From Nitrosopumilus sp. (GTDB lineage Archaea > Thermoproteota > Nitrososphaeria > Nitrososphaerales > Nitrosopumilaceae), in the NCBI GenBank assembly GCA_965204345.1, contig OZ241981.1, positions 544,001 through 608,000 on the forward strand: a stretch of DNA of 64,000 nucleotides, in the 5' to 3' direction. Below are positions 7,386-22,856 of the stretch, one piece after another (the first letter of the stretch is position 1; every line of letters starts with the position of its first letter). Below the pieces are notes generated by a model, which saw only the letters and a program-made list of their open reading frames with translations, was not told the origin of the DNA and did not search any database. Both the position numbers and the translations under genes were made by a program.

Positions 7386-8139
<754 letters not shown>

Positions 8140-8176
8140 TTTTAAATTCCTATTATAGCAAATTTCTCTCTCGCTT

Positions 8177-8428
8177 TTATTTAATTTTTTCAGGATTTCC
8201 TTTCAAATAGTCTTCAAATAATTTTTCAAGATCGTCATCATTATCACATTTTTCAATTTGATTGACTAGATCGGGTTCTTCAATTTCATAACAATTCAAA
8301 ACATCTTGAGAATCTTTGAAAATTAGCATGGCTTTATTTTTGAAGATGCAGTGATAGAGTTTTTCTTTTTCCATTTTTTCAGGCTTTAGATTTATGCCAT
8401 TTTCATCCACAGATACAGGATATACCAT
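8177..8428 (-). CDS. Hypothetical protein
   Basis: 83-aa ORF with ATG start, protein-like composition, co-oriented with Alba. Confidence 0.7.
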
Positions 8429-8952
8429 AGGAATAATTTTAGGATGCTACAATTAACAATTATGGATGTTTTTACAGATCCATTTAGGTTCAAATATTTG
8501 ATCAGGTACAGCAATATAATATTTAATTTGAACAATTATTCATCAGAGATAAAGTTTCCAGGTGGATGCTTGCTTCTCAAAGGATGTTTAAGGAATCCTT
8601 TGCATGCTAGTTTAATTTTATAGCATTCATTTAGCATATTGAAAAAAGGTGATTCAACAGCAATTATGAAAATTCATCCATTCATAGCTACATCAGATCC
8701 ACATAAGCTTGTATGATGACACACCATATTCAAGGGCAGAAATTGGCATCAAGGGTGATAGTAAATGGATCATCATAATTCAAAACGTGTGGCAAATATC
8801 CGCAAGTTACCAAGGCCTTAAAAAAATAGAGTTTTTAATTCTAGAAAAATTATGTGATGATTTAATTTCTCAGACAACAAAAGGGAATTAGAAATAAAAT
8901 CAAAGCAGACATGCTCTGAAAATCAAGACATTAAGATAAATGCATGCAAAGA

Positions 8953-9603
8953 TTATAGTTTCAGGCCAAATATGGGATGACTTTTCTTTAGGACAACTAT
9001 AGGCAAATACGGAAAGCCGTGTTCAAACACATCAGTAAACTGTACAGGAATACCCTTGTGTCCGGAATATTTTATGAAAGGCTTGGTTGGCCTTTCATCT
9101 AGTTGAACATAATAAAAACAGTAAACTGTTTCAAGCAGATCAATTATAGACATGTAACCTACAACCCATTTTTTTCTTAGAGGAAAACACAGCAGAGTTA
9201 CCTTGGGTTCATCAGGCCATTCAGGATCATATGTTAGTCTGGCAAGACTTCCCAAGTCGTGTACCTTGGAGGATTTGAACTTGTCTGTGATTTTTTTATA
9301 AGATTGAACCGGAAAAGGCAGGGAATCCAAATGGACTATAGGAGCATGTTGAGATATAGACTTGATCGAATTTACAACTCTGGCAGTCTCCTTGCCATTT
9401 TTTGAATTATATTCGATGTAACGGCCATCTTGATAGCCGGTGTAAAATGCAAGAAGTGAATCAGACAAAACAAGCCTACAAGACAGCACCATGTTTCCGT
9501 GTAGTTTGTGGGCATATACTCTCAAAGGATGCTCCCTGAAAGCACAGACAAATCGAGCAAAATCTAAAAAGCCGTCTGTCTCTACAAAATGAATTTGAGT
9601 CAA
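8953..9603 (-). CDS. Hypothetical protein (possible internal duplication)
   Basis: 216-aa ORF; DFARFVC and SLARLTY plus two PIV(H/V)L motifs suggest two related halves. Confidence 0.75.
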   Translation of the reverse strand: MTQIHFVETDGFLDFARFVCAFREHPLRVYAHKLHGNMVLSCRLVLSDSLLAFYTGYQDGRYIEYNSKNGKETARVVNSIKSISQHAPIVHLDSLPFPVQSYKKITDKFKSSKVHDLGSLARLTYDPEWPDEPKVTLLCFPLRKKWVVGYMSIIDLLETVYCFYYVQLDERPTKPFIKYSGHKGIPVQFTDVFEHGFPYLPIVVLKKSHPIFGLKL

Positions 9604-9685
9604 TTCAACCAGCCTTTTATTTAAAAACTAATTAATGTTAGTCATAAAAAATTTGAAAAATAGGTCAGGATGGAACAAACCCAAA

Positions 9686-10000
9686 TCAGATAGAGGCGGT
9701 TCCACGCTGCTTGGTACACAAGTCTAATGCATCATCAACAGCAGTTACAAACACCTTGCCATCGCCTTTTGTTCCAGTACAAGCAACATTTGCAATCGAA
9801 TTTAAGACAGCATCAAGTTTAGTGTCATCTATGACACAGATTATCATTTCCCGACTATAATATTGTCCGACCAGCGGAGGATCTTCTGTGCCCTGTCCCT
9901 GGGCAGACTGAATCGTCACACCGCCAACGCCATTTTTCTTGATGGCTACAACAACAGCATCCCTTATTCCGGGATGAATTATCGCTTCAATTTTTTTCAT
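9686..10000 (-). CDS. P-II family signal transduction protein (divergent, short T-loop)
   Basis: MKKIEAIIHP start, GVGGVTI, and TGTKGDGKVFV B-loop. Confidence 0.9.
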   Translation of the reverse strand: MKKIEAIIHPGIRDAVVVAIKKNGVGGVTIQSAQGQGTEDPPLVGQYYSREMIICVIDDTKLDAVLNSIANVACTGTKGDGKVFVTAVDDALDLCTKQRGTASI

Positions 10001-10040
10001 AGATGGCGTTGAACTTTAATTTCTATAAAGCAGCATGCCT

Positions 10041-10058
10041 ATTCTCACAAATGAATAT
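10041..10058 (-). promoter_or_regulatory. Stress-cluster palindrome copy (ATATTCA-TTTG-TGAGAAT) upstream of P-II
   Basis: 11 nt upstream of a TTTATA box; one of 8 similar sites in 10-20 kb. Confidence 0.7.
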
Positions 10059-10159
10059 CAGATCAGATAATCATGCGACATTAAATTGATTTTTATAAAA
10101 AAATTATCATGACAGCCTCACAAAGTACTTTGGCATATTTAGAATTTTATATTGCTTGC

Positions 10160-11077
10160 CTAAATTAGATTTAGAGTTTTCTTAATCAGAGTCACCCTAT
10201 TCCTAATTGTGACATCACTAATCCCAGATTCTTTTGCAATCTTAGCCTGAGTTATTTTTTCATTATTTATTATACATGAGAGATACAACGATGCAGATGC
10301 TTGTGCGACAGGGTGCTTACCTGCAGTAATACGTGCATCCTCACAAGACTTTAGTATTTCAAAGGCATCTCGTTTTGTTTTTTCTTTCAAATCCATATTG
10401 TTTGAGATTTTTGAGATAAAGGAAGTGATATCATATTGGGTAAGATTTAACTCAAGCCTTTTGATTATAGTGCGTAAATCTCGAGAAAGAATTCTTCGTT
10501 CTATATTTCCAGCGTTTCCTATATCACTCAAAGTTCTTGGAATGTTATTTTCCCTACATGCAACATACAAAGAGGCAGAAATTAGGGATTTCATGGTTCT
10601 GCCTCTAGTCAGTTTTGCATTTACGGCTTTTCTGTAAATGTATGCTGCATTTTCAACCACATTATTTGGAATCCCCAGCTTTGTCTTCATTGCATGAAGC
10701 AGCGTGAATGCCTTACTCAAGCTAGCAGTTTCTCTGGATTTGCTTCGCTGATCCCAAGTTCGTAATCGGCGAAAGTCATATTTTGTCTTGCTAGATAGTG
10801 CCTTTCCGGTAGAATCTTTGTTTGTGCCAATTACAGTAGATAGCCCCCTGTCATTCATTGTTAATGATGTGGCAGGGCCTGTTCTTGTCAACTTTGCATA
10901 ATCTTCTTGGGTATAGCCATTATTTTCATGTGATGTGTCAATCATATTTTGCAATAAGATAAGACCGCATCCCCCACAAACAACTTCTCCCCGTTCAGAA
11001 TCTGTGATTGCAGGATAGGCTTTGCAAGCATCTAGTTGACACTCGACATCATAATCATTTGAATAATTCTCTATCAC
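10160..11077 (-). CDS. tfb: Transcription initiation factor IIB paralogue
   Basis: Zn ribbon (GEVVCGGCG), RTGP, GLSTVIG and two cyclin repeats (RGR; GKHP...SDVTIRNR). Confidence 0.95.
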   Translation of the reverse strand: MIENYSNDYDVECQLDACKAYPAITDSERGEVVCGGCGLILLQNMIDTSHENNGYTQEDYAKLTRTGPATSLTMNDRGLSTVIGTNKDSTGKALSSKTKYDFRRLRTWDQRSKSRETASLSKAFTLLHAMKTKLGIPNNVVENAAYIYRKAVNAKLTRGRTMKSLISASLYVACRENNIPRTLSDIGNAGNIERRILSRDLRTIIKRLELNLTQYDITSFISKISNNMDLKEKTKRDAFEILKSCEDARITAGKHPVAQASASLYLSCIINNEKITQAKIAKESGISDVTIRNRVTLIKKTLNLI

Positions 11078-11388
11078 TGTTAATTTGTACTAGTCATTAT
11101 AAAATAAAAATAACCTGATAGAGGTAATTTTATGATTAAAAATAAAAAATACATACAAAAAATTCCTATAGTTTCTTTTAGAAATTATTACATTTTATGT
11201 AAAAACATGCAGCATAATAAATGTTAAAATAAAAAAAATTTTTAAAATAAAAATAAAAAATATTTGTGGATTATTGCATCTGTTCCTTCTTTGAGTTTCT
11301 TCTCAATTATCGCATCGGTGTATCTGCCTTGCTGTGCATTACAACCACGGCATTTGCTACAAAACCATCATAGTGATTTTCCAATCCG

Positions 11389-11406
11389 ATATCCACCCAT
11401 GAGAAT
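11389..11406 (+). promoter_or_regulatory. Stress-cluster palindrome copy (ATATCCA-CCCA-TGAGAAT) upstream of Hsp20
   Basis: 11 nt upstream of TTCATAAA, which lies 29 nt before the ATG. Confidence 0.65.
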
Positions 11407-11446
11407 TTACACTTGATTTCATAAATATCCAAAGTCACTGCAAAAT

Positions 11447-11917
11447 ATGACAAAAAAACTCGTCAAAAAACAAGCATCACTGCCAGCAATGCCTAGTTTT
11501 TCTGAATTTGACAGGATTTTTGATGAGTTTAGAGAGGATATGGAAAAATCATTTTTTGCACTCTCCAGAACAGATTTTCCAAAATTTCCAGAAACGACAT
11601 GTGATGTAATTGACGAAGGCAAGCAACTCAGGGTAAAAATGAGTGTTCCAGGTGTTACAAAAAAAGAGGTAGCTTTGAGCGTAACTGATACTGCAATAGA
11701 CATTCGTGCAGAACACAAAGAAGAATCAGAAGAAAAGAAAAAGAATTTTCTTAGAAAAGAGAGAAGCAATGTATCATATAAAAGAATCCTGCCATTGCCT
11801 GACAAAATAATTCCTGCAAGAGTCAAATCAAAACTCACAGACGGAATATTGGAAATCATACTTCCAAAGGCAAAGCCGACAAAAATTCAGAAGAAAAGAA
11901 CAGTAAGAGTTCAGTAG
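11447..11917 (+). CDS. Small heat shock protein (Hsp20/alpha-crystallin)
   Basis: VPGVTKKEV, RKER...YKRILPLP, DGILEIILPK and C-terminal V-x-V. Confidence 0.93.
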   Translation: MTKKLVKKQASLPAMPSFSEFDRIFDEFREDMEKSFFALSRTDFPKFPETTCDVIDEGKQLRVKMSVPGVTKKEVALSVTDTAIDIRAEHKEESEEKKKNFLRKERSNVSYKRILPLPDKIIPARVKSKLTDGILEIILPKAKPTKIQKKRTVRVQ

Positions 11918-11970
11918 CCTTTTCTTATTTTTTACCGACAGTATAAAAGAATGAAATGACATATTTTATC

Positions 11971-12111
11971 ATGGCAAAGCGAATAACAGTGATGCTAGAT
12001 GATGACAATCTTAAAAAATTGCGGCTAAAACAAGCAAAGGCAATCAAGGAATCATCAAAATCAGTTAGTTTCTCCAGAATAATCAACGACGAAATCAGAA
12101 ACTGTAAGTGA
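11971..12111 (+). CDS. Small ribbon-helix-helix-like protein, 46 aa (below the ORF-track cutoff)
   Basis: MAKRITVMLDDDNLKKLRLKQAKAIKESSKSVSFSRIINDEIRNCK has the RHH beta-alpha-alpha pattern; TATAAA lies ~29 nt upstream. Confidence 0.75.
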   Translation: MAKRITVMLDDDNLKKLRLKQAKAIKESSKSVSFSRIINDEIRNCK

Positions 12112-12113
12112 CA

Positions 12114-12275
12114 TCATATCCAAGGATCGGCATCCTCACCCCACTGTTCAACACCTTTGGATGACTTGCTCAGAGAGTTACTTTTTGCAACGTTAGCTAA
12201 AAGACATTCATCAGAGCAGTGACTGAGTTTTGGGCGCCTCATCACTTTGCCACATTTTTTACAAAACTTTCCCAT
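12114..12275 (-). CDS. Small Cys-rich (CxxC...CxxxC) zinc-finger protein
   Basis: MGKFCKKCGKVMRRPKLSHCSDECL; internal ATG chosen because a TTTATAAA box lies ~20-25 nt upstream. Confidence 0.65.
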   Translation of the reverse strand: MGKFCKKCGKVMRRPKLSHCSDECLLANVAKSNSLSKSSKGVEQWGEDADPWI

Positions 12276-12384
12276 TAATGAACAAAGTATTTTTATAAAT
12301 ATACCAACTTTGTAGATTTTCAATACTGATAATGAGTACAAGTATCCAGGATATTTTTGATATGTTTATTTGTAATGTTAAAAT

Positions 12385-12981
12385 ATGAAAATCATGGATG
12401 TGTCTGCGGTAAAAAGAAAGCCACATTCTCAAAAAAAGGGGAAGACAAGAACGGTAACATTTAGGCTCCCAGAGAAATTAATCACAGAGTTAGAAACAGA
12501 GGCCGTACAAAAAGAGATATCTACAAATGTTTTGGCAAGACAAATTTTTGAAAAATTTGCTCGATGGGACAGATTTTCTGACAAAATTGGAATAATACCA
12601 GTGCCAAAAAGAATACTAACATCACTTGGGTTGGATTTGGAAACTCAAGACATCAATATGATAATAGATGTGTTAAAGCCAATAATCAAAGACAATGTAT
12701 TATTCATGAAAGGAAGATATGATTTGAAAAGATGCATAGAAACATTTGAAGACTATGTGAGGGCATCCGGAATGAAATCAGACCACAGAGTGGAAGGCAG
12801 CCTACATCATTTTATCATACAGCACGGGTTAGGAATGAGCTGGTCATTGTTTACAGAACAGCTACTCAAAGAGATATTTCATGAATTTTTACCTGATAAA
12901 ACCGTCAAATCAGAAACAACTGAAACTACTGTGATTACAACCATTGCACTTGGAGCAGATTTTAATGAACATGAATATTAA
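12385..12981 (+). CDS. Putative regulator with an N-terminal RHH-like domain
   Basis: TRTVTFRLPEKLITELETEA...ISTNVLARQI is RHH-like; the C-terminal domain (HHFIIQHGLGMSWS) is of unknown function. Confidence 0.75.
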   Translation: MKIMDVSAVKRKPHSQKKGKTRTVTFRLPEKLITELETEAVQKEISTNVLARQIFEKFARWDRFSDKIGIIPVPKRILTSLGLDLETQDINMIIDVLKPIIKDNVLFMKGRYDLKRCIETFEDYVRASGMKSDHRVEGSLHHFIIQHGLGMSWSLFTEQLLKEIFHEFLPDKTVKSETTETTVITTIALGADFNEHEY

Positions 12982-12991
12982 AAAAAAGAAA

Positions 12992-13321
12992 CTAGCTGTT
13001 GAGAATTAACTCAACGTTTGTTTTTCCGTTATTAAATACACTTTGTATTCCTTTTACTTTGCTTTTGTAAAGGAACAGCCTTTTGCCATCTTCAGTAATG
13101 ATGCCAGATGTTAAAAGCAATTTGTTGTCATGAAGAGTCTGAATTCTTCGGTATACGGTGCTCATGGGAATCTTTGACTCGGCAGTGATCTCAATTACTG
13201 ACTTTGGTTTGTACATGATGGATTCCAGGATGGTCCTGCAATACTTGTCAGACAAGATTTCAAGCAGGCTATCTTGTTTTTCTGCCTCTTCAATTTTGAA
13301 GGTTTGCTGTAATGATTGCAT
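12992..13321 (-). CDS. Winged helix-turn-helix regulator (ArsR-like)
   Basis: LSDKYCRTIL...KSVIEI...IPMSTVYRRIQTL. Confidence 0.85.
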   Translation of the reverse strand: MQSLQQTFKIEEAEKQDSLLEILSDKYCRTILESIMYKPKSVIEITAESKIPMSTVYRRIQTLHDNKLLLTSGIITEDGKRLFLYKSKVKGIQSVFNNGKTNVELILNS

Positions 13322-13502
13322 AAAATAGTATTTTATAGAATATGATATAATAAATCAGTCAACACTGTCTTGCAGTGTATACGATTATTTTCTGAAATTC
13401 ATCCCCCATTTCGTGCCTCATCTTTTCTGATTTTGGCCAACACCAAAGACAAAATGTCAGGATCTTGATTTTTAAATTTGACAGACCATAAAGCAGGCTT
13501 TA

Positions 13503-14777
13503 TTATTTTTTAGAGAATTTATAGAATAATGCACCAATTCCAACAAGCGCCATCCCTATAAGCACAACTTTGAATTCAAATTGCAAAGTCATGTATATTG
13601 AGATTCCAACTCCAAATAATGGAAGAATGGGAAACCTGCCAATGTTTAATGGAACTGTGAATTTTCTTTGGATCTCAGGTTCGGTATAACGTAAAACAAT
13701 TACTGCCAAATTTACAGCGGCAAAAGTAATTACAATGGCAAAAACAGCAATGTTTGCAACAATTACAATATCACCAATTAATGTAAAAGAAATCGACATA
13801 ATCATAATCACAATAATTGCCATCCAGGGAGTTTTGGTCCTAAAATGAATTTTTTTTAGGAACAATGGGAATGCCTGTTCTCTTGCCATGCCATAAAAAA
13901 TTCTAGAACCGGCAACAAGAGTAATCAAAACAGTGTTGGTTATGGCAAAAAGGGCAATTGATGAAAGCAGTACATGTGCTTTAGGACCTAGTCCTCTTTC
14001 TGCAACCAATGCAATGGGTGCAGATGAGGCTGCAAGTTCGCTCCAGTCTACAACTCGTACCACAGACAAAGAGACAAGTATGTAAATTGTTCCAGTAATC
14101 AGAACGGATAAAACTATTGCCCGAGGGATGGTTTTTTTAGGATTTTTTACCTCTTCTGCTATATTTGCCATATTTTCAAATCCAATAAACGCAAAAAATA
14201 TCAATACAAATGCAACCATAATTCCTGCAAGGCCTGTGGGGCTTTCAGCATAATCTACAGGTGCAGGATTAACAAAGGTAAACCCAATTATAATAATCAA
14301 AACCAGGCCTGTCGCTTCAATTATTGTAAAAATGGTATTTGTCCATGCAGATTCCCTAATCCCCATGAAATTTACCAGTGAAAGAATAGCCAACAGCCCA
14401 ATTGCAGATAAAACTATAGGCAGATCCACAAACTCCGAAAAATAGCCGCCGAATCCCAATGCAACAGTTGAGGCAGTAATAACAGAAGTAACGGCAGTTA
14501 GCCATCCAATAATAAAAGCAGCAAAATTATTTTTGAAAGCATTTTTAACAAAGACATACTCTGCGGCAGCCTTTGGAAATACAGAGGATAATTCAGCATA
14601 GCTGAATCCAGCAAATAATGCAACAATGGATCCCAAAACAAATGCAACCCATACTGCATTACCTGCAATACCTGCCGCCTCTCCTATCAGTACATAGATT
14701 CCCGCACCAAGAATTAATCCAACCCCATACATGGTAAGTTGAAAGAGGCCCATGTGTCGTTTTAGCTCAGACAACAA
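13503..14777 (-). CDS. APC-family amino acid permease
   Basis: GLILGAGIY, YAELSS and FAFIGFE...AEEVKNP motifs; about 12 TM helices. Confidence 0.92.
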   Translation of the reverse strand: MLSELKRHMGLFQLTMYGVGLILGAGIYVLIGEAAGIAGNAVWVAFVLGSIVALFAGFSYAELSSVFPKAAAEYVFVKNAFKNNFAAFIIGWLTAVTSVITASTVALGFGGYFSEFVDLPIVLSAIGLLAILSLVNFMGIRESAWTNTIFTIIEATGLVLIIIIGFTFVNPAPVDYAESPTGLAGIMVAFVLIFFAFIGFENMANIAEEVKNPKKTIPRAIVLSVLITGTIYILVSLSVVRVVDWSELAASSAPIALVAERGLGPKAHVLLSSIALFAITNTVLITLVAGSRIFYGMAREQAFPLFLKKIHFRTKTPWMAIIVIMIMSISFTLIGDIVIVANIAVFAIVITFAAVNLAVIVLRYTEPEIQRKFTVPLNIGRFPILPLFGVGISIYMTLQFEFKVVLIGMALVGIGALFYKFSKK

Positions 14778-14881
14778 ATTGCTTTGTTAGTCAATGATAA
14801 GAGGAAAGTTACGATTATTGATGGTGAAAATAAGGATTTGGTTTATTTGCCATAGATTACGTTTTGCTTAGTTCTGTTAAA

Positions 14882-15307
14882 TCACTTTACAATCAATACT
14901 GGTTTGCCGGATTTATGAAGGACATAGTTTGATGTGCTGCCCAAGAAAATCTCTCTTGCCGCACTCATCCCTCTAGAACCAATCACGATAAGATCAAAAT
15001 TGTGTCTTGAAGCAATATCAACTATTCTTTTTCCGTCATCGCCATAAGAGACTCGCTCAAAAAACAAAATGCCCTTTTTTGCTGCCTTTAGCTTGGCTTT
15101 TTTCATAATTTTTTTGGCATGATCTAAAAAAAGTCTTTCCATAGGAGGCATGGGTTCGTCAGTTCTAGGTTTAACCATCCCAATCACATACAAGCCAGTA
15201 ACAGCGGCATGAGACTCTCTTGCCATCTGAATTGCAACGTCTAAACCACGAAAAGAGTTAGGAGAGCCATCTAGGGGCACTAGAATTTTCTTTATGCTAA
15301 TTGCCAT
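14882..15307 (-). CDS. Universal stress protein (USP)
   Basis: ILVPLDGS...DLIVIGSRG...FLGSTSNYVLH. Confidence 0.95.
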   Translation of the reverse strand: MAISIKKILVPLDGSPNSFRGLDVAIQMARESHAAVTGLYVIGMVKPRTDEPMPPMERLFLDHAKKIMKKAKLKAAKKGILFFERVSYGDDGKRIVDIASRHNFDLIVIGSRGMSAAREIFLGSTSNYVLHKSGKPVLIVK

Positions 15308-15346
15308 GAAAAAATACGCTAATTTTTAAATTTAAAGACAATCGAG

Positions 15347-15377
15347 ATTCTCCCAGTTGATTTTCATATATGACATT
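15347..15377. promoter_or_regulatory. Two overlapping stress-cluster palindrome copies between the divergent USP and CBS genes
   Basis: Minus strand AAAATCA-ACTG-GGAGAAT lies 10 nt before TTTAAA; plus strand ATTTTCA-TATA-TGACATT. Confidence 0.65.
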
Positions 15378-15421
15378 CTAGATGAACATGAAATATCAAA
15401 TCAGACATTGTGAATTGTAAG

Positions 15422-15883
15422 ATGAATAATGCAAAGACCATGACTATTGCAGATGTTATGACAAAATCAGTGATTTCAGTGGATGCATCCATGACAGTAA
15501 ATGAAGCTGCAAAGATGATGGAAGACACAAAGGTTGGTGCAGTCATTGTAATGGAAAACAACATTCCCGTAGGAATTATCACAGATAGAGATTTTGCAGT
15601 AAAGGTTGTAGCCCATGCATATCAAATTACATCTCCAGTAAAGCAGATAATGTCATCTCCCTTATTCTCAATAAGCTTAGACGAGTCAGTTAGGACAGCA
15701 GCTGATTTAATGCATGCACGAGGGATAATGAAACTGCCCGTAATTGATGGCGAAAAGGTTGTAGGAATAATAACAGCAAGGGATATTGTTAATTTATTGG
15801 CAGTTTGTGTGGAAGATGACGTACGAGACATGTACTTTCATTCAGTAGTGAAAATATTTTCAGATTACAGCCCATATAACTAA
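15422..15883 (+). CDS. CBS-domain pair protein
   Basis: IADVMT...VGIITDRD...IMSSP...VGIITARD; ATG at 15422 preferred over GTG at 15410. Confidence 0.92.
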   Translation: MNNAKTMTIADVMTKSVISVDASMTVNEAAKMMEDTKVGAVIVMENNIPVGIITDRDFAVKVVAHAYQITSPVKQIMSSPLFSISLDESVRTAADLMHARGIMKLPVIDGEKVVGIITARDIVNLLAVCVEDDVRDMYFHSVVKIFSDYSPYN

Positions 15884-16269
15884 AAAAAATTACGGCAAGC
15901 CAGATAATACTAGCAGCAATGCCATTTTTTATTGGAATTGCAACGTATCTCCATGGAACAGCCAGCCAGAATAACCGCAAAGAACGTCTCAGAAAAGAAG
16001 AAGAAGCCAAATAGGAATATTCTGTATGTGATTTTGTCAGGAATTTGGGCTTTTCTCTTTGCTGGGAATTATACCACAATTTAAAAAAGGTGCTTTGATA
16101 ATAACTTGAGGTAGTACCAAGCATGAATACAGCCCCATACTGGAATAAAAAAATATGTTCAGATTGCAAGAGAATGCGGTGTGACAAAGGATGTCTTTGT
16201 GACTGCCATCAGTTACGAGATAGAACAAATTAAGCAATATCTGCATATCTTTTAAAAAAAAATTACCAG

Positions 16270-16707
16270 TTAATCAGGACCCAGTCTCAAAAGTATCTGA
16301 TCACAGATTTTGCGCATTTGGGAATCAGAACCTACACTAGAAATTCTTACAATATCACTAGTGGTGATGATTCCAATAATTTTGTCATTTTCTCTTACAG
16401 GTAGTTTATGAATGTCTTTTTCTTTCATCATCTCTGAGGCCTCCCACACTGTTGCTTCCGGACCAATGGTGATCAAAGGAGAGGACATTACTTCATAAAT
16501 TTCAGTAAAAAGAGGCTTGCCTCCGGCTATGACTTTGGTTACAAAGTCCCTTTCAGTTACAATTCCAACAGGCCTTGCATCATCGGTAATAACAACACAG
16601 CCGATATTTTGTGTTTTCATGCGCTCAGCAGCTTCTTGTAATGAGGCCAGCTTGTCAACAGTTAGAACGGTTTTGCTCATTATCTGATTTACAAACGTAC
16701 TATCCAT
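16270..16707 (-). CDS. CBS-domain pair protein
   Basis: VNQIMS...VGIVTERD...VMSSP...IGIITTSD; start trimmed to MDSTFV. Confidence 0.92.
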   Translation of the reverse strand: MDSTFVNQIMSKTVLTVDKLASLQEAAERMKTQNIGCVVITDDARPVGIVTERDFVTKVIAGGKPLFTEIYEVMSSPLITIGPEATVWEASEMMKEKDIHKLPVRENDKIIGIITTSDIVRISSVGSDSQMRKICDQILLRLGPD

Positions 16708-16747
16708 ACGACACAACATATTTCCAATTATATCAGATAAATTCCAG

Positions 16748-16765
16748 ATTATCATTTTTGAGAAT
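16748..16765. promoter_or_regulatory. Near-perfect palindrome ATTATCA-TTTT-TGAGAAT between the divergent CBS and USP genes
   Basis: 6 of 7 bases symmetric; best copy of the cluster motif. Confidence 0.75.
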
Positions 16766-16818
16766 CAGCAAAGAAAATCACAATATCTTTTAAAATATAA
16801 AAACAAGAGTTCCAACAT

Positions 16819-17250
16819 ATGGCAATATCAACAAAGAGAATACTGGTTCCCTTAGATGGCTCAAAAAATTCAGTCAGGGGATTGGACATGGCCATACACA
16901 TTGCAAGGCAATCTCAGGGAACAATCACGGCACTATCAGTAAAATCAGTGCCTGGAATATATTCACTTCACCCCCTAGGATTTTTGGATCTTAATTCAAT
17001 GACAGAAGTGAAAAAACTGCTTGAAGATTCAAAGGTAAGGGCTGCAAAAAAAGGAATCAAATTGGTTGGAAAGGCACTTGCAGGAGATCCGGGATACGAT
17101 ATTGCAAGATTTGCAAATAATGCAAAAAACAAAATTGATCTAGTGGTAATTGGCGCTCGTGGAAGAAGCTCTGCAAAAGAGATTTTCTTGGGCAGCACGT
17201 CAAACTATGTCCTTCACAAATCCAAGAAACCAGTATTGATTGTAAAATAA
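16819..17250 (+). CDS. Universal stress protein (USP)
   Basis: ILVPLDGS...GDP...DLVVIGARG...FLGSTSNYVLH. Confidence 0.95.
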   Translation: MAISTKRILVPLDGSKNSVRGLDMAIHIARQSQGTITALSVKSVPGIYSLHPLGFLDLNSMTEVKKLLEDSKVRAAKKGIKLVGKALAGDPGYDIARFANNAKNKIDLVVIGARGRSSAKEIFLGSTSNYVLHKSKKPVLIVK

Positions 17251-17261
17251 TCAAGAACCGT

Positions 17262-17675
17262 CATTTTAAAAAAAATGCTGATGTCAATGGACGGTTTGAA
17301 ATTTTCTCAAAAAGCGTTACAGCGGGCATGCGAAATTGCCAAAGCACTTGATTCAAAAATTATTCTGCTTTATGTGATTGAAAATCCACCTGTGATTAGC
17401 CTTTTAGATCGTAGGAAAATCTTAATTTATTGCAACAGTTTGGAACCAGGACACTTAAAAAAAGCAAACGACATGTGGTAAAAGAAGAGATCGGTGCAAA
17501 GAGTCTTAAAAAGAGAAAGCATTGCAGGTAAAATTAAAAAATTTGTTAAAACTGAAAAATGCAGTCTGATAGTAGTGGAAAGCAGGGATTGGGAACAGTT
17601 AGCAAAGCGCTGCTTGAAAGTGTTTCAAACAGACTTGCGCAAACATTATCTTGTTTGCTGTTGACTGCAAAATAA
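17262..17675 (+). pseudogene. Frameshifted USP pseudogene
   Basis: First frame reads KKMLMSMDG..FSQKALQRACEIAK...IILLYVI; a later frame reads GLGTVSKALLESVSNRLAQTLSCLLLTAK-stop; several frameshifts lie between. Confidence 0.8.
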
Positions 17676-17677
17676 AG

Positions 17678-18529
17678 TCATGCTAGTGTATTTACAATAT
17701 CAGACTTTGTAATAATGCCCACTAACCTTGATTTTTTGACTACGGGTAATCCACTAATGTCATATTTTATCATACGAGTAATAGCCAACCTAACATCCTC
17801 ATCTGCCTGAATTGTGATGGGATTGGTTGCCATGATGTCAGCGGCGTTGAATGCAAAGAGATAGCTCAAGTGATTGGGATGATGTTCTCTTAGTCCCTTA
17901 TGGAATTGATACTCTTTAACCTCAAGAGGATCTGCAGATTCTGCAATCCACTTGGGAACCTTTGCAGGCACAAAATCTCGAAAGGTAATCACTCCCACGG
18001 GTAGCGAATCACGTTTTACGATAATTCTTGATATTCCATATTTCATCATTAGACCCTCCACATGAAGTATTGGATCACTTGGAGCAACAGTGATTAATTT
18101 TCTTGTCATTATTTTTGAAACTTTTATTGGCATCACATTTTTTGTGAGGAAGACAGTTACAAGATTGGTTTTAGTCACGATTCCTCTCAGAGTTTTGTTT
18201 TTGTTGAGAATAATCACCAAATTAATTCGATGCTTTTTCATCAGTTGTGCACATTCTTCAATAGAATCGTCTGGAGTCAGTGCAAATAATGTTTTTGATG
18301 TAAAGTCTTTTGCCTTTACTGATTTTATTGGCTTTGTACCCAACTCATAAATCTTCCTTGCAATGTCCTTTTCAGTTATTACTCCAGTTGGTTTTTTTTG
18401 ATCTAAAACTATTACTCGCTTTATCTTATGCTCAAGTAAGATTTCCCTTATTCTCAACAGCGAGGTGCCAGGAGTGACTGTGAGAGGTTTTATGATTACA
18501 TTGGATAATTTTGATTTTTTTATATCCAC
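17678..18529 (-). CDS. Four-CBS-domain protein
   Basis: Four G(V/I)(I/V)T motifs (GVITEKD, GIVTKTN, GVITFRD, GIITKSD); GTG at 18529 preferred as start. Confidence 0.9.
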   Translation of the reverse strand: MDIKKSKLSNVIIKPLTVTPGTSLLRIREILLEHKIKRVIVLDQKKPTGVITEKDIARKIYELGTKPIKSVKAKDFTSKTLFALTPDDSIEECAQLMKKHRINLVIILNKNKTLRGIVTKTNLVTVFLTKNVMPIKVSKIMTRKLITVAPSDPILHVEGLMMKYGISRIIVKRDSLPVGVITFRDFVPAKVPKWIAESADPLEVKEYQFHKGLREHHPNHLSYLFAFNAADIMATNPITIQADEDVRLAITRMIKYDISGLPVVKKSRLVGIITKSDIVNTLA

Positions 18530-18568
18530 GGCAATTCTGTGCCACAAGTTGGTAAATACCCCATCAAT

Positions 18569-18586
18569 AATTTCAAAAGTGAGAAT
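18569..18586. promoter_or_regulatory. Stress-cluster palindrome AATTTCA-AAAG-TGAGAAT between the divergent 4xCBS and HPF-like genes
   Basis: TTTA boxes lie 12 nt away on both strands. Confidence 0.7.
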
Positions 18587-18639
18587 CAAGATGATGTATT
18601 TATCATACTAGTTTTAGTTTTAATTAAGAAGCACAGGAT

Positions 18640-19005
18640 ATGTCAGAGAAGATTCCAATATATGTAACAGGATTGCCAAAAGATGAGCCAGCTGGAGAGC
18701 TGCTGGCATCAAAATTTGGCAGCACGTTAGAAAAGGTCAGACAGGTGCTATCAGACATAATTGAAGCAAAGATTGATGTAAAATCTCAAAATACAGACGG
18801 AACAAAATCCCATTATGATGTAACTGCAATTATTAAAACATCAAGCGAGCAGCTAACGTATACGGAATCAGGCTGGGATATTCTTAAAATTGCAGATGAA
18901 CTGTCTAGAAAATTGGAAAGAGAGTTATCAAAGCATGATGACAAACGTCAAAGAGAGAGCATTCGTAAAAAAGATATCAGAGTCTCAAAAATGAGATCTA
19001 GTTGA
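18640..19005 (+). CDS. Putative HPF/RaiA-like (ribosome hibernation) fold protein
   Basis: Predicted beta-alpha-beta-beta-beta-alpha layout, ending ESGWDILKIADELSRKLERELSK plus a basic tail; resembles the HPF C-terminal helix (D..AID....KLERQL.K). Fold inferred by eye. Confidence 0.6.
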   Translation: MSEKIPIYVTGLPKDEPAGELLASKFGSTLEKVRQVLSDIIEAKIDVKSQNTDGTKSHYDVTAIIKTSSEQLTYTESGWDILKIADELSRKLERELSKHDDKRQRESIRKKDIRVSKMRSS

Positions 19006-19232
19006 TTTCAATGGGCAGTAAGAGTCAGAAAAGCAGTAGTATTTCCAGGTGCAGTTAATTCTTCTTTGGATAGCATTTATCGATAAACAATTCTAAAAAA
19101 CAAGGCAATTCAAAAAGCATTAGATGTTGCAAGTGCCTCCTTCTCCTCCATCAAGGAACCATCAATAAAACCATCAAAATATAATTTCATTTTTCATTTA
19201 TTGGCAGTCTAATGTCAATAACGGATATGAGT

Positions 19233-19250
19233 AATTTCAATATTGGAAAT
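19233..19250 (+). promoter_or_regulatory. Stress-cluster palindrome variant AATTTCA-ATAT-TGGAAAT upstream of USP
   Basis: 11-12 nt before (C)TTATAT, which lies 28 nt before the ATG at 19291. Confidence 0.6.
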
Positions 19251-19290
19251 CATCACTGTCTCTTATATTGAATATATTGTGTTGCAATAC

Positions 19291-19713
19291 ATGTCAAAAT
19301 TAAGAAAAATTCTTGTCCCGCTAGACGGATCAGCAAACTCCAACAGGGGACTAGACAAAGCAATTGAAATTGCAAAAGGCAGTGATGCAGAGATTACGGG
19401 ATTTTATGTATTTCATGTGCCTCTTGCTGCAGGAGTAAAATATACCCAAAAAATGAAAGATCAGGTACAGGAGAAAGCAGTTAAAGCAATTGGTCCGGCA
19501 ATGGTTCGTGCAAGAAAGGCAGGAATCAAATTCCAACATAAAGAGGGAGGAGGCCATACAGGTTCGGAGATCCTCAAATTTGCACAAAAGGGAAAGTTTG
19601 ACATGATTACAATTGGTGCCAGAGGAAGAGGCGGCATTAAGGAGGCATTTCTTGGAAGTACATCAAACTATGTCATGCACAAATCAAAAATTCCAGTATT
19701 GATTGTAAAATAA
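19291..19713 (+). CDS. Universal stress protein (USP)
   Basis: KILVPLDGS...DMITIGARG...FLGSTSNYVMH; start trimmed to MSKLRK. Confidence 0.95.
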   Translation: MSKLRKILVPLDGSANSNRGLDKAIEIAKGSDAEITGFYVFHVPLAAGVKYTQKMKDQVQEKAVKAIGPAMVRARKAGIKFQHKEGGGHTGSEILKFAQKGKFDMITIGARGRGGIKEAFLGSTSNYVMHKSKIPVLIVK

Positions 19714-19783
19714 TCAAAAACTGGCCATCGCATTATTTTTGCTTAAGGTAAAACTACTAAAAATCAGATAAATGTCTATTGTA

Positions 19784-19801
19784 ATATTCAATAGTGAGAA
19801 G
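19784..19801 (+). promoter_or_regulatory. Orphan stress-cluster palindrome ATATTCA-ATAG-TGAGAAG
   Basis: 9 nt before TTTATA; only a gene remnant follows. Confidence 0.55.
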
Positions 19802-20046
19802 TGATTATATTTTATAATGTATTGTTTGAAACAGATTGAATAATCAATATTTTGTGTTATCTGCTATGGGTTATTGTCAATAATTCCATCGGGTGCTGCA
19901 TGCGCTGAACATGTTTTTGAAAACAAAGGTGTATTCATAATAAAGATCACAGGACATTGTCAGATTCCAGTGTAATTTTTTTCAGATTCTAATTGAGATG
20001 TGTCTAGATGTTGAGCAAAAGCGCTAAGATAAAAAATATCTAATCC

Positions 20047-20188
20047 AAAAGAATCAGAATATGGTTCGTAATAATATTTTTTAAAACCAACTGCTTAGTT
20101 GTTGCATAGTCTCAGAAAACAAATTCCATGTATCAGCAACGTCTATGGTTTACTAATTATTATTACATCGTCTTGCAAGTATGCTTGC
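20047..20188. repeat. 142-bp direct repeat, copy 1 (copy 2 at 22715-22856)
   Basis: Manual alignment shows one mismatch (agtCtcag vs agtTtcag). Confidence 0.95.
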
Positions 20189-20239
20189 GGCACCGGTAAA
20201 TTCCAGTGAACAGATCATCTGAATTTACCAGAACCGTTG
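20187..20239 (+). mobile_element. Internal fragment of the MITE-like repeat (hairpin core)
   Basis: gcggcaccggtaaattccagtgaacagatcatc is identical to the sequence starting at 23567. Confidence 0.8.
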
Positions 20240-20478
20240 GAAATACACTACTTGAAGTAAATCAAATAATTATTTTAAATTTTGAAACAGTCAAAAAATA
20301 ATTGATTCCAAATTGTAATCACTCTAAGAAGATGATGAATAAGATCTCGGAGAGTCAATAATGTTATATGAATTGTAATTGGGATCTATGATCTTTTTTA
20401 AAAAGTTTGATTATTCTAGATGTCATTCCAATATTTGGAGATATTTTTTATGTGAGTATTTTCAGATGTCATCATATT

Positions 20479-21294
20479 ATGAGTTCTGATTCCTATCAAT
20501 TACCATATATAGAAATGGCATGGGTTTGAGATAACAAACAGTATGGTGTTTCTCTAAACAATCCAGTTGTTATGGTTGGAGAAGATATGCAAACATATCA
20601 CGTAAAATTTAACAAACCAGATGATCTTAGAATTGGAATTAATGAAATAGTTTGCAGTTTAGTGGGTTTAGAGTTGGAATTACCTCTCTTTAAGCCAATA
20701 ATTGCTAAAATTTCTCAAAAAGTAATTGACAGTCATGACTCTTTAGCAGGTTATTGTGCAGGAGAACATTTTGCTCAAGTGTATTTACAACCATTTGAAA
20801 CAGTCAACTCATACATAGGCCAAGGTAAAGAACTCAAAAAAGAAAATGTGGCAAATATAAGATCAGTACCAGATCTAATTGTCTTTGACAAGTATGTAGA
20901 AAATTACGATAGACATGGAGATAACATTTGCCTACGACCAAATGAAGCATTGAGTACAAAGGTTGATTATTACTTATTTGATCATGATTTGGCATTTCAA
21001 AGAAATGACACAAAGACAGACATAAGCAATTTACGTGACTTGAAAAAAGAGTTGATTCACATGTGCTATGTTGTTGATGATGTAAATAAAAGGACATTAT
21101 TTTGGCGTGGAACTAGCAAATGTATTGGATTGAAATCTAAAATTCCAGATTTAATTAAAAAAATCCCAAAATCATGGGCAGAAGGATATGAATCATATAT
21201 GTCAGATATAGAAATTTTACTTTCAAAATTTTCTGAAAGTATCATGAATGAGCATATAGAACTTAATAAAGGAAGATTCCCTAAATTACAGTAG
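20479..21294 (+). pseudogene. HipA-like (HipA_2-type) kinase with an in-frame TGA at codon 17; residual ORF 20572-21294
   Basis: YHVKF (ATP-binding Lys), INE, NYDRHGDN catalytic loop and FDHDLAF; the upstream in-frame sequence is MSSDSYQLPYIEMAWV*DNKQYGVSLNNPVV. Confidence 0.75.
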
Positions 21295-22676: not shown

Positions 22677-22724
22677 CCAAACAAGTAAGAACTACAAATA
22701 TCATGCTAAACATAAAAAGAATCA
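22677..22724. repeat. 48-bp perfect direct repeat (att-like), copy 1; duplicates the TauE 3' end
   Basis: ccaaacaagtaagaactacaaatatcatgctaaacataaaaagaatca is identical to 25202-25249. Confidence 0.95.
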
Positions 22725-22856
22725 GAATATGGTTCGTAATAATATTTTTTAAAACCAACTGCTTAGTTGTTGCATAGTTTCAGAAAACAAATTCCATGTA
22801 TCAGCAACGTCTATGGTTTACTAATTATTATTACATCGTCTTGCAAGTATGCTTGC
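22715..22856. repeat. 142-bp direct repeat, copy 2
   Basis: See 20047-20188. Confidence 0.95.

Follow-up and report, generated by a model that had tools for sequence, protein, structure and literature searches.

A conserved bipartite promoter element upstream of BRE/TATA marks a probable stress regulon in Nitrosopumilus and related ammonia oxidizers

Several described systems share parts of the arrangement reported here. The DosR regulon of Mycobacterium tuberculosis includes several universal stress proteins (USPs), the alpha-crystallin HspX, the CBS protein Hrp1/Rv2626c, and an HPF-like protein; a NarL-type response regulator with haem kinases controls it, hypoxia, NO, and CO trigger it, and its palindromic box is found at many promoters. 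In Pyrococcus, the Phr regulon comprises hsp20, an AAA+ ATPase, and phr, where Phr acts as a repressor from a site lying across the transcription start. The present article concerns an 18-bp bipartite element, TCA-N4-TGA at its core, that recurs upstream of stress-protein genes in a 64,000-nucleotide stretch of DNA from Nitrosopumilus sp. (assembly GCA_965204345.1, contig OZ241981.1, positions 544,001 to 608,000), hereafter the window. Two bodies of published work frame it. The GvpE-responsive upstream activating sequence (UAS) of haloarchaeal gas-vesicle promoters, as presented in the accessible text of PMC2241852, spans 20 nt, consists of two 8-nt portions upstream of the B-recognition element (BRE) at a critical distance from it, and has distal portions that overlap between divergent promoters. 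HibA and AHA are described in the accessible parts of two papers as experimentally supported ribosome hibernation factors (PMC13324472, PMC13728122), and the HibA paper, in those parts, places the Nitrosopumilaceae among lineages without identifiable factors (PMC13324472).

The window (G000:C1:544001-608000 in our numbering of genomes and contigs) belongs to genome G000, which is 2.12 Mb in length at 38.7% G+C and encodes an archaeal amoA. Positions 9686-19820 hold a cluster of about twelve stress-protein genes with a shared upstream signal, plus neighbors; domain calls come from Pfam, with a profile cross-check against NCBIfam (Table 1). We consider it probable, on the comparisons of sequence given below, that a sequence-specific transcription factor binds the element and that the element defines a stress-inducible regulon. 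The regulon set consists of a P-II-like protein, Hsp20, three USPs, two CBS-pair proteins, a Sri-like protein with four CBS domains (4xCBS), an HPF/RaiA-like protein, and the pair formed by a small Zn-ribbon-like protein and RHH198, a protein with a ribbon-helix-helix-like (RHH) segment. The original prediction, of a multi-gene regulon in which P-II-like, Hsp20, USP, CBS, and HPF-like genes share a cis-element just upstream of BRE/TATA, is supported. The Zn-ribbon-like open reading frame (ORF), for which Pfam and NCBIfam scans gave no family, is a likely member. The cluster also encodes a paralogue of transcription factor TFB and an amino-acid permease; both upstream regions were checked, neither has a site, and both genes are ruled out as members.

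All eight positions first proposed as sites hold the TCA-N4-TGA pseudo-palindrome on the gene-facing strand. The more specific pattern given for them, AWWWTCA-N4-TGAGAAT, describes three, 10041(-), 16748(+), and 18569(+), and does not describe the other five, which are off by one or two positions each: 11389 has TCCA, 15347 (minus strand) GGAGAAT, 15360 TGACATT, 19233 TGGAAAT, and 19784 a final G. Three literal hits compare with 0.01 expected, and none of 100 shuffles reaches three. The supposed ideal form, ATTCTCA-N4-TGAGAAT, has no hit anywhere in the genome, and the form that is conserved is not that clean palindrome but TGAWWWTCA-N4-TGAGAAT. The pattern TCANNNNTGAGAAT has 21 hits in the genome, mostly within ORFs, and a TATA-like box 10-12 nt downstream of pattern hits is found for cluster hits only. 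The sequence by itself is weak evidence; the signal is carried by position.

The positions are strict. As proposed, the gap between site and TATA-like box is 10-12 nt at P-II, Hsp20, USP1, HPF, USP4, and the orphan site (19784), and the box behind 15360 is weak. The 22 nt between 16748 and the USP2 box were also measured correctly; their explanation as an extra helical turn gives way to a second site, which overlaps the first at a 13-bp offset. At eight promoters (P-II, Hsp20, Zn-ribbon, USP1, CBS2, USP2, 4xCBS, and USP4) the site ends 39-40 nt before the start codon, so that the element occupies about -58 to -41 relative to the start codon. Over 812 genes of the genome, TATA-like hexamers are most frequent at -29 relative to the ATG, with 40 counts over a baseline of about 5, and the boxes of the cluster therefore sit where the core promoters of this organism sit. 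Because the TATA box lies at the canonical -29 of the genome, the start codon is probably the transcription start as well, which would make these transcripts leaderless. For hits to TCA-N4-TGRNAAT, the distance to plausible ATG starts peaks at 39-41 nt (6 of 23 hits).

Sites occur in pairs that overlap by 5 bp, at a 13-bp offset, at 15347/15360 (USP1/CBS1), 16748/16761 (CBS2/USP2), and 10041/10054. At divergent promoters this gives a 31-bp unit, arm-N4-TGAnnnTCA-N4-arm, in which the distal halves are shared and each arm lies 9-12 nt from its own TATA box; the 16748 site, read on the plus strand, is the distal half of the USP2 element. The same 5-bp overlap arrangement is present in loci L252, L255, and L259 from relatives, and a matching distal arm is seen by eye in many P-II orthologue promoters. 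The divergent 4xCBS and HPF-like genes share a single site, which lies 12 nt from TTTATCAT and 53 nt from ATG 18640 toward the HPF-like gene, and 10 nt from TATTTACC and 39 nt from GTG 18529 toward the 4xCBS gene. Read on the plus strand, the site at 12316-12333 stands 51 nt before RHH198.

We constructed a position weight matrix (PWM) from 87 sites upstream of P-II, Hsp20, HPF-like, and RHH198 orthologues, taken from other genomes only. The TCA columns are conserved in 82-87 of the 87 sites and the TGA columns in 76-87, while the four spacer columns are unconstrained. Scanning covered all 4.24 M positions of the genome, with the cluster taken as window 9600-19900, or 10.3 kb. At 14 bits or better, 12 of 62 genome positions fall in the cluster, against 0.30 expected; at 16 bits or better, 9 of 33, against 0.16. 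Clustering of PWM hits and the literal pattern both set the motif apart from background; a relaxed core, taken up below, stays at background level. The scan also recovered sites missing from the original list, 10054 and 12316 within the cluster and G000:C1:1383744 and 1384438 outside the window; a third additional site within the cluster is 16761.

Conservation in orthologous promoters, named in the original prediction as a point on which it could fail, is evident. Footprints were scored with PWMs from which the gene family in question had been left out, with 200 shuffles per sequence and a pass set above the 99th percentile; upstream regions pass for P-II in 28 of 29, for Hsp20 in 19 of 23, for the HPF-like protein in 12 of 13, and for RHH198 in 24 of 28. 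All 28 passing P-II sites are 39-41 nt from the ATG. In most of those genomes the orthologous genes are dispersed over several loci, so that local duplication does not account for the shared element. Individual promoters agree: the USP1 orthologue in L041 carries a site, the CBS2 site is present in the orthologues in L030 and L032, the USP4 orthologous promoters in L033, L035, and L038 carry one with identical spacing, and by eye 10 of 10 promoters of USP2 orthologues show, about 10 nt ahead of the TATA box, a site of the type GAAAATCA-N4-AGATAAT. In the 61 genomes of the genus, GAWWWTCANNNNTGAGAA has 84 hits, compared with 4 for the same pattern read backwards; in 151 genomes of the family it has 142, compared with 15 backwards. 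The family count includes two hits from an unpublished genome, G152, which enters into no other result.

Beyond the genus, we sampled eight loci from genera g19, g22, g27, g31, and g36, picked for clustered pattern hits. Seven of the eight, from four genera, are similar islands with sites before USP, CBS, Hsp20, or CBS-HPF genes, and the g27 locus (L253) has one USP-like gene with a site and nothing more. The order wHTH (winged helix-turn-helix) gene, site, CBS gene recurs in all five of the other-genus loci that hold it, with RHH198 next in three of the five. Both in the genus and in the islands found in four other genera, half-sites, a spacer of 4 nt, and the spacing to the start codon are kept, while spacer sequence and flanks drift. 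We conclude that the motif is real, conserved across the family, and cis-regulatory. A protein search with P-II for related loci returned distant bacterial and archaeal GlnB-type loci only.

Table 1. Genes and sites of the cluster. Positions are those of the window; distances run from the end of the site, and PWM scores are in bits.
Feature	Position	Strand	Spacing	PWM	Basis or remark
P-II-like protein, 104 aa	9686..10000	-			Pfam P-II E 9e-16
P-II site ATATTCATTTGTGAGAAT	10041..10058	-	11 nt to TTTATAGA, 40 nt to ATG 10000	21.2	best in genome
Second, weaker P-II site	10054..10071	+	5-bp overlap, 13-bp offset with 10041 site	17.3	
TFB paralogue	10160-11077				Pfam
Hsp20 site ATATCCACCCATGAGAAT	11389..11406	+	40 nt to ATG 11447	16.6	
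Hsp20/alpha-crystallin small heat-shock protein	11447..11917	+			Pfam HSP20 E 3e-20
Small CxxC Zn-ribbon-like ORF, 53 aa	12114..12275	-			matched upstream of RHH198 in L033, L103, L104
Zn-ribbon/RHH198 site ATTATCAGTATTGAAAAT	12316..12333	-	12 nt to TATATTTA, 40 nt to ATG 12275	17.9(-), 16.9(+)	
RHH198, 198 aa	12385..12981	+			weak RHH match
wHTH protein, 109 aa, ArsR/TrmB-like type	12992..13321	-			weak Pfam/NCBIfam hits
wHTH-promoter palindrome ACACTG-N5-CAGTGT	13362..13378				not the regulon motif; unique in genome
USP1, universal stress protein	14882..15307	-			Pfam Usp E 2e-28
USP1-proximal site AAAATCAACTGGGAGAAT	15347..15364	-	10 nt to TTTAAATT, 39 nt to ATG 15307	18.2	
CBS1-proximal site ATTTTCATATATGACATT	15360..15377	+	44 nt to ATG 15422	11.8(+), 15.6(-)	
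CBS1, CBS-pair protein	15422..15883	+			Pfam CBS E 1e-27
CBS2, CBS-pair protein	16270..16707	-			start 16707 from orthologue alignment and 40-nt spacing
CBS2-proximal site ATTCTCAAAAATGATAAT	16748..16765	-	40 nt to ATG 16707	19.8(-), 20.7(+)	
USP2-proximal site AGAATCAGCAAAGAAAAT	16761..16778	+	9 nt to TTTTAAAA, 40 nt to ATG 16819	12.1	
USP2	16819..17250	+			Pfam Usp E 1e-28; relatives 83-88% identical, labelled Nitrosopumilus
4xCBS protein, 283 aa, Sri-like (SriC or SriD)	17678..18529	-			four Pfam CBS stretches; GTG start 18529 from orthologues
Single site shared by divergent 4xCBS and HPF-like genes	18569..18586	+		15.5(+), 15.8(-)	
HPF/RaiA-like protein, 121 aa	18640..19005	+			Pfam Ribosomal_S30AE 23.7 bits, exactly at cut-off
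USP4 site AATTTCAATATTGGAAAT	19233..19250	+	12 nt to TTATATTG, 40 nt to ATG 19291	8.5	
USP4	19291..19713	+			Pfam Usp E 7.5e-30
Orphan site ATATTCAATAGTGAGAAG	19784..19801	+	10 nt to TTTATAAT	17.3	no gene behind

The products of the set fit, by comparison with described proteins, a stress or low-activity program, in that HPF-like and 4xCBS proteins are found together with Hsp20 and with USP, CBS, and P-II modules, which bind nucleotides. The 4xCBS protein has four tandem CBS domains in about 280 aa and is homologous to SriA-D (Sri, single ribosomal subunit inhibitor); its best PDB chain is 9zni_6 (281 aa), E 4.7e-27. Entry 9ZNI is the M. acetivorans 70S-SriC-SriD hibernation complex, according to the accessible text of a preprint that also sets aside a Nitrososphaerales "SriC-short" clade, with a shorter and less basic loop, as possibly diverged (PMC13004131). 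The HPF-like protein matches TIGR00741 with E 2e-6 and 28.1 bits, below the 40.9 cut-off, and its PDB profile matches are weak (E 0.04-0.8), nine of the ten listed being of the YfiA/RaiA/HPF/S30 type. It is 27-44% identical to the C-terminal domain of CBS-HPF fusions. Both proteins are candidate hibernation factors, and the dormancy flavor of the original prediction gains from this gene content, namely the Sri-like 4xCBS protein and an apparent HibA-type fusion in L252 and L259.

Here the HPF-like domain and the four CBS domains are encoded by separate divergent genes (18640-19005 and 17678-18529), and in the window's genus the gene divergent from the 4xCBS gene encodes an HPF-like protein of 111-121 aa. 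Fused CBS-HPF forms of 360-430 aa exist in G021, G023, G024, and other families. In the g36 loci, a gene divergent from the Sri-like 4xCBS gene (L252, about 12869-13985, minus strand; L259, about 7450-8605, plus strand) appears to encode a HibA-type CBS-HPF fusion with the same element as its driver, a call made because the reading frame behind the site appears to run into the HPF match. The stand-alone form may be a truncated HibA. A recent split of HibA into the two present genes was considered and rejected: the 4xCBS protein is 21-28% identical to the fused CBS module, except for three short matches of 41-56 residues at 38-43% identity, and G021 has both forms.

One relative, G001, has at L039 4275-4418 a truncated P-II-like remnant with motif and TATA box directly upstream of the HPF-like gene, and the remnant seems to serve as that gene's promoter.

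Proteomics of N. maritimus bears on when such genes are expressed. There, members of the CBS, USP, and Hsp20 families rise from 0 to 20-50 spectral counts in one condition only, 32 C with replete iron (PMC12974425). The Hsp20 Nmar_0010 is detected only at 32 C. Proteins that move from 0 to detectable levels, with as many as about 85 spectral counts, at 32 C iron replete alone are the USPs Nmar_0674 and 1272, the CBS proteins Nmar_0673, 1271, 1304, and 1481, adjacent hypothetical proteins such as Nmar_1305 and 1323, and the TFIIB paralogue Nmar_0979; several-fold rises under that condition are seen for the CBS protein Nmar_0164, the USPs Nmar_1274 and 1768, and the hypothetical protein Nmar_1328 (PMC12974425). 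The proteins assigned to that condition further include Nmar_0675, 0676, 0852, 0890, 0905, 1007, and 1329; the USP and CBS paralogues Nmar_1012, 1659, 0568, 0764, and 0778 are not induced. Among the proteins tabulated over six conditions, USP and CBS proteins are off or no higher than baseline at 32 C when iron is limited (PMC12974425). USP proteins are absent under H2O2, as cited in the same paper, and three uspA transcripts show no significant regulation under ammonia starvation or Cu stress (PMC12974425). The trigger originally suggested, hypoxia or ammonia starvation, is not supported, and the N. maritimus data, in which the match to our genes is by family and neighborhood, argue against ammonia starvation. 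The co-expression of these families is, by analogy, the pattern that a regulon predicts.

Public sequencing runs were also sampled for words from the locus. Six RNA runs hold 0.12-0.32 of the sampled words, shares that are no evidence of expression. At least half of the words sampled over window 9900-19850 are held by ten runs, four labelled with the organism, four as "sponge metagenome", and two as "metagenome".

The factor itself may be encoded in the cluster. RHH198 has an N-terminal RHH-like segment, followed by a domain of about 140 aa at its C-terminal end. Its matches to CopG_antitoxin in Pfam (E 0.0014) and to BrnA in NCBIfam (E 0.0035) are far below the cut-offs, it has no significant PDB profile match, and its atlas look-alikes are unnamed Nitrososphaerota clusters. 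C117, H134, H141, H147, and H196 are invariant over 20 sequences. Together with the wHTH gene it forms a conserved pair, in 1 to at least 9 copies per genome, and in other genera it belongs to an operon that the motif drives and that follows directly on the wHTH gene. The wHTH protein is a single wHTH of about 110 aa with a Cys in its first helix, Cys28, which is invariant in 19 of 19 sequences. Its profile matches are Pfam TrmB (E 0.0054, 17 bits against a cut-off of 25.6) and, as the best PDB hit, 3r0a (E 0.0017). We take 3r0a to be the structure of MM_1094, which the paper on OxsR cites as a member of arCOG02242.

The wHTH promoter contains its own, different palindrome, ACAYTG-N5-CAGTGT (Table 1), and related palindromes are seen by eye about 10 nt before the TATA box of most wHTH orthologues, in the genus and in four other genera. 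This suggests that the wHTH protein recognizes the palindrome in its own promoter. As that palindrome is conserved, unique in the genome, and different from the regulon motif, the wHTH protein may not be the regulon factor and was down-weighted. RHH198 ranks first because its own operon is motif-driven, because of its invariant His/Cys domain, and because the wHTH protein has a different palindrome. The claim that candidate regulators reside in the cluster is kept in part: RHH198 is the best of them, the TFB paralogue lacks a site, the wHTH protein has another palindrome, and the second supposed RHH protein is a 51-aa ORF with no Pfam family. As a rough weighting from sequence features, RHH198 is a serious candidate that falls short of an even chance, some factor other than these two is just as plausible, and the adjacent Cys-bearing wHTH protein is doubtful. 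A fuller proposal we offer quite tentatively: RHH198 would switch on a family-wide "shut-down" module, made up of HPF/RaiA-like or HibA-like proteins, the Sri-like 4xCBS protein, Hsp20, and USP/CBS/P-II nucleotide sensors, via a tripartite upstream activating element. The His/Cys domain could then sense metal or redox state, which would fit the iron dependence seen in N. maritimus.

In the mechanism we propose, a dimeric factor, or a dimer of dimers, would bind the element and recruit or stabilize TFB/TBP, making the element an upstream activating site. In normal growth the genes would be silent, and stress, for which heat with ample iron, from N. maritimus, is the only documented condition, would turn them on as a group. 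The output would be a low-activity state, with hibernation factors, a chaperone of the holdase kind, and USP, CBS, and P-II modules that bind adenine nucleotides. The element belongs among archaeal factor sites upstream of BRE/TATA; activation, trigger, and identity of the factor are what we infer.

Two loose tests on sequence alone gave no such signal. A looser core, TTCANNNNTGAGAA, with one mismatch allowed, is not enriched in the window, with 12 hits against 11.5 expected. A PWM built from the HPF orthologue sites alone leaves most cluster sites below rank 30 in the genome. Several observations weigh against the proposed reading. The 19233 site scores 8.5, a score that 514 genome positions reach, and the CBS1(+) and USP2-proximal 16761 sites reach about 12 bits only; these three were accepted because of spacing and position, and for 19233 also because of orthologous sites, not because of score. 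Counterparts in N. maritimus were matched by gene family and neighborhood only, and as they stay off at 32 C when iron is limiting, the signal is not heat by itself. The upstream position favors activation without proving it, and several strong-looking TATA boxes would fit repression. As for RHH198, GAWWWTCANNNNTGAGAA has 79 hits in the 39 genomes with that protein (E 1e-60 or better) versus 5 in the 22 without, a co-occurrence confounded by shared ancestry and matched by the same distribution of the wHTH gene; in the window's genus, moreover, RHH198 lies beside a site that is 27-30 nt from its TATA box (by eye), not the canonical 10-12.

The rival that survives best keeps both site and regulon but makes the site a repressor operator, at which the factor would block TFB/TBP at BRE/TATA until stress released it, with the overlapping arrangement blocking both directions. 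RHH proteins are mostly repressors in bacteria, several good TATA boxes stand at the canonical -29, and about 3-5 bp separate the site from the expected BRE position. The 0 spectral counts of the N. maritimus family counterparts in five of six conditions (PMC12974425) are also what tight repression gives. Archaeal repressors that have been characterized, however, mostly bind across BRE/TATA or the transcription start; for GvpE and for OxsR, a site upstream of BRE/TATA goes with activation, in the accessible text of the respective papers (PMC2241852, PMC9426492), and the strict distance to TATA resembles the distance dependence of the GvpE UAS. We regard repression as unlikely, though deserving of weight next to activation.

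Much less probable is a reading in which the TFB paralogue at 10160-11077 is dedicated to these promoters and the conserved sequence is an extended promoter element, as proposed for haloarchaeal hsp5. The paralogue is inside the cluster, it adjoins USP4 in the closest relative, G004, and the TFIIB paralogue Nmar_0979 is among the N. maritimus proteins seen only at 32 C (PMC12974425). For hsp5, BRE and TATA alone give heat induction via TFB2/TFBb; the same account, in its accessible text, adds that sequences 5' of the BRE did not matter (PMC2396416), whereas the element here ends 10-12 nt before TATA, beyond the BRE, which abuts TATA. Two half-sites around a free 4-nt spacer are the signature of a dimeric factor, not of TFB, and the TFB gene has no site and lies beside the cluster in only three relatives among the fetched loci (L030, L035, L254). 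That the element is an artefact of AT-rich background, or of promoter copies carried along by duplication of the paralogous USP and CBS genes, as the relaxed core at 12 against 11.5 and the many equal or better hits elsewhere in the genome to a PWM from one promoter family might suggest, we consider practically negligible, given that the site precedes unrelated families (P-II, Hsp20, HPF-like, Zn-ribbon, and secreted proteins), that half-sites and spacing are conserved and spacer and flanks are not, that leave-one-family-out PWMs still find sites at 39-41 nt, and that reversed-pattern controls are about 10- to 20-fold lower.

Outside the window, the two further sites (20.7 and 18.0 bits) lie 40-41 nt before the ATG of two adjacent genes, G000:C1:1383803-1384351 and 1384496-1385218, whose N-terminally hydrophobic products are apparently secreted and have no function assigned; comparable sites also precede unrelated secreted proteins in G063 and G021. 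Two repeated sequences also score highly. CAAAAATCARGCATGAAAAT (17.8 bits) is found in nine in-ORF copies of what is evidently a multi-copy gene family, at G000:C1:171906, 438236, 468722, 583452 (window 39452), 610481, 1448538, 1731352, 1766413, and 1848123, and inflates genome-wide hit counts. A repeated intergenic element at G000:C1:10137, 678084, and 1952500 (also 182872 and 259800) consists of the motif-like GAAAATCATCTCTGAGAAT followed directly by a hairpin repeat; it scores 17-20 bits and lacks promoter architecture.

Three USPs in the cluster are intact and one is broken. The broken one, at window 17275-17664 (+), is split into ORFs 17275-17481 and 17494-17664, of which Pfam Usp matches the first only; relatives have an intact USP in this place, between USP2 and the 4xCBS gene. 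A 36-aa Cys-rich ORF (CxxC...CxCxCH), identified by eye at window 16124-16234 (+), where longest-ORF calling gives an antisense ORF of 69 aa (16037-16246), has a TGGGAAT arm 10 nt before a TATA box and a degenerate distal half-site, and its C-terminal end is kept upstream of USP2 in L041. No ORF longer than 40 aa follows the orphan site in the gap 19714-20571. The region has no Rfam family (the one Rfam hit, at 14787-14854, has E 0.67, below gathering) and no homologue in the loci fetched from relatives; a comparable site in G004 precedes a 45-aa acidic ORF that has no counterpart here. A dispersed hairpin repeat of about 45 bp (GGTAAATTCCAG ... CTGAATTTACC) occupies window 20188-20236 and about 25 other places in G000, and window 20047-20188 is duplicated at 22715-22856 with 99% identity, which suggests rearrangement just downstream of the orphan promoter. 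Past this repeat-rich gap lies a HipA_2-like kinase gene, window 20572-21294 (+), Pfam E 8e-16.

A full-text literature search, which left subscription journals outside its range, found no description of this motif or regulon, nor any described regulon for the Nitrosopumilaceae, a group without a genetic system that is among the most abundant ocean microbes. The analysis yields a concrete cis-element with defined geometry, a gene list, and two candidate regulators, and it offers a possible mechanism for the all-or-none appearance of CBS, USP, and Hsp20 proteins in N. maritimus proteomics. Candidate hibernation factors under the same switch bear on the stress survival of slow-growing chemolithotrophs and on whether Nitrosopumilaceae really lack such factors. 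Should the tentative RHH198 proposal be true, marine ammonia oxidizers would have their first defined stress regulon together with their supposedly missing hibernation factors. The motif-bearing genes could also be used as stress markers in marine and sponge metatranscriptomes.

Compared with known systems, the locus resembles each in part. The parallel to DosR, drawn in the original prediction, extends to gene content (USPs, alpha-crystallin, CBS, and HPF-like proteins by Pfam) and to nothing beyond it; structures of Rv2626c, 1xkf and 1y5h, are among the PDB profile matches of the 4xCBS protein, with E about 9e-9. DosR acts at bacterial promoters, the motif here differs from the DosR box, and expression data from a relative point to heat with ample iron. 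The resemblance is at most convergent gene content. Like the Phr regulon, this is a small archaeal stress regulon with hsp20, and the Hsp20 and a neighboring Cdc48-like ATPase of N. maritimus rise together at 32 C (PMC12974425); unlike it, the motif is different and does not overlap the transcription start. With the HibA/AHA and Sri/Dri hibernation systems it has in common an HPF/RaiA-like protein and a 4xCBS protein nearest to a chain of the 70S-SriC-SriD complex, whereas the HPF-like domain stands alone here (121 aa) and the role in hibernation is a predicted one. OxsR of Haloferax volcanii, in the accessible text of PMC9426492, likewise controls a stress regulon through a palindromic motif placed upstream of BRE/TATA for activation. 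The wHTH protein of the cluster resembles the OxsR/arCOG02242 TrmB-family class in its single wHTH, invariant N-terminal Cys, and weak match to 3r0a. The OxsR motif is CG-rich, however, the palindrome of the wHTH promoter here differs from the regulon motif, and H2O2 did not bring up USP proteins in N. maritimus (as cited in PMC12974425). For architecture, the closest described precedent is, by our comparison, the GvpE UAS of the PA/PD promoters. It is similarly bipartite, with a short spacer and a fixed distance directly upstream of BRE/TATA, and it shows the distal overlap found here at USP1/CBS1, CBS2/USP2, and P-II, and at 4xCBS/HPF in relatives. The two differ in phylum, in sequence, and in the genes served, which are gas vesicle genes in the case of GvpE, and GvpE is a known activator, whereas activation by the element described here is presumed.

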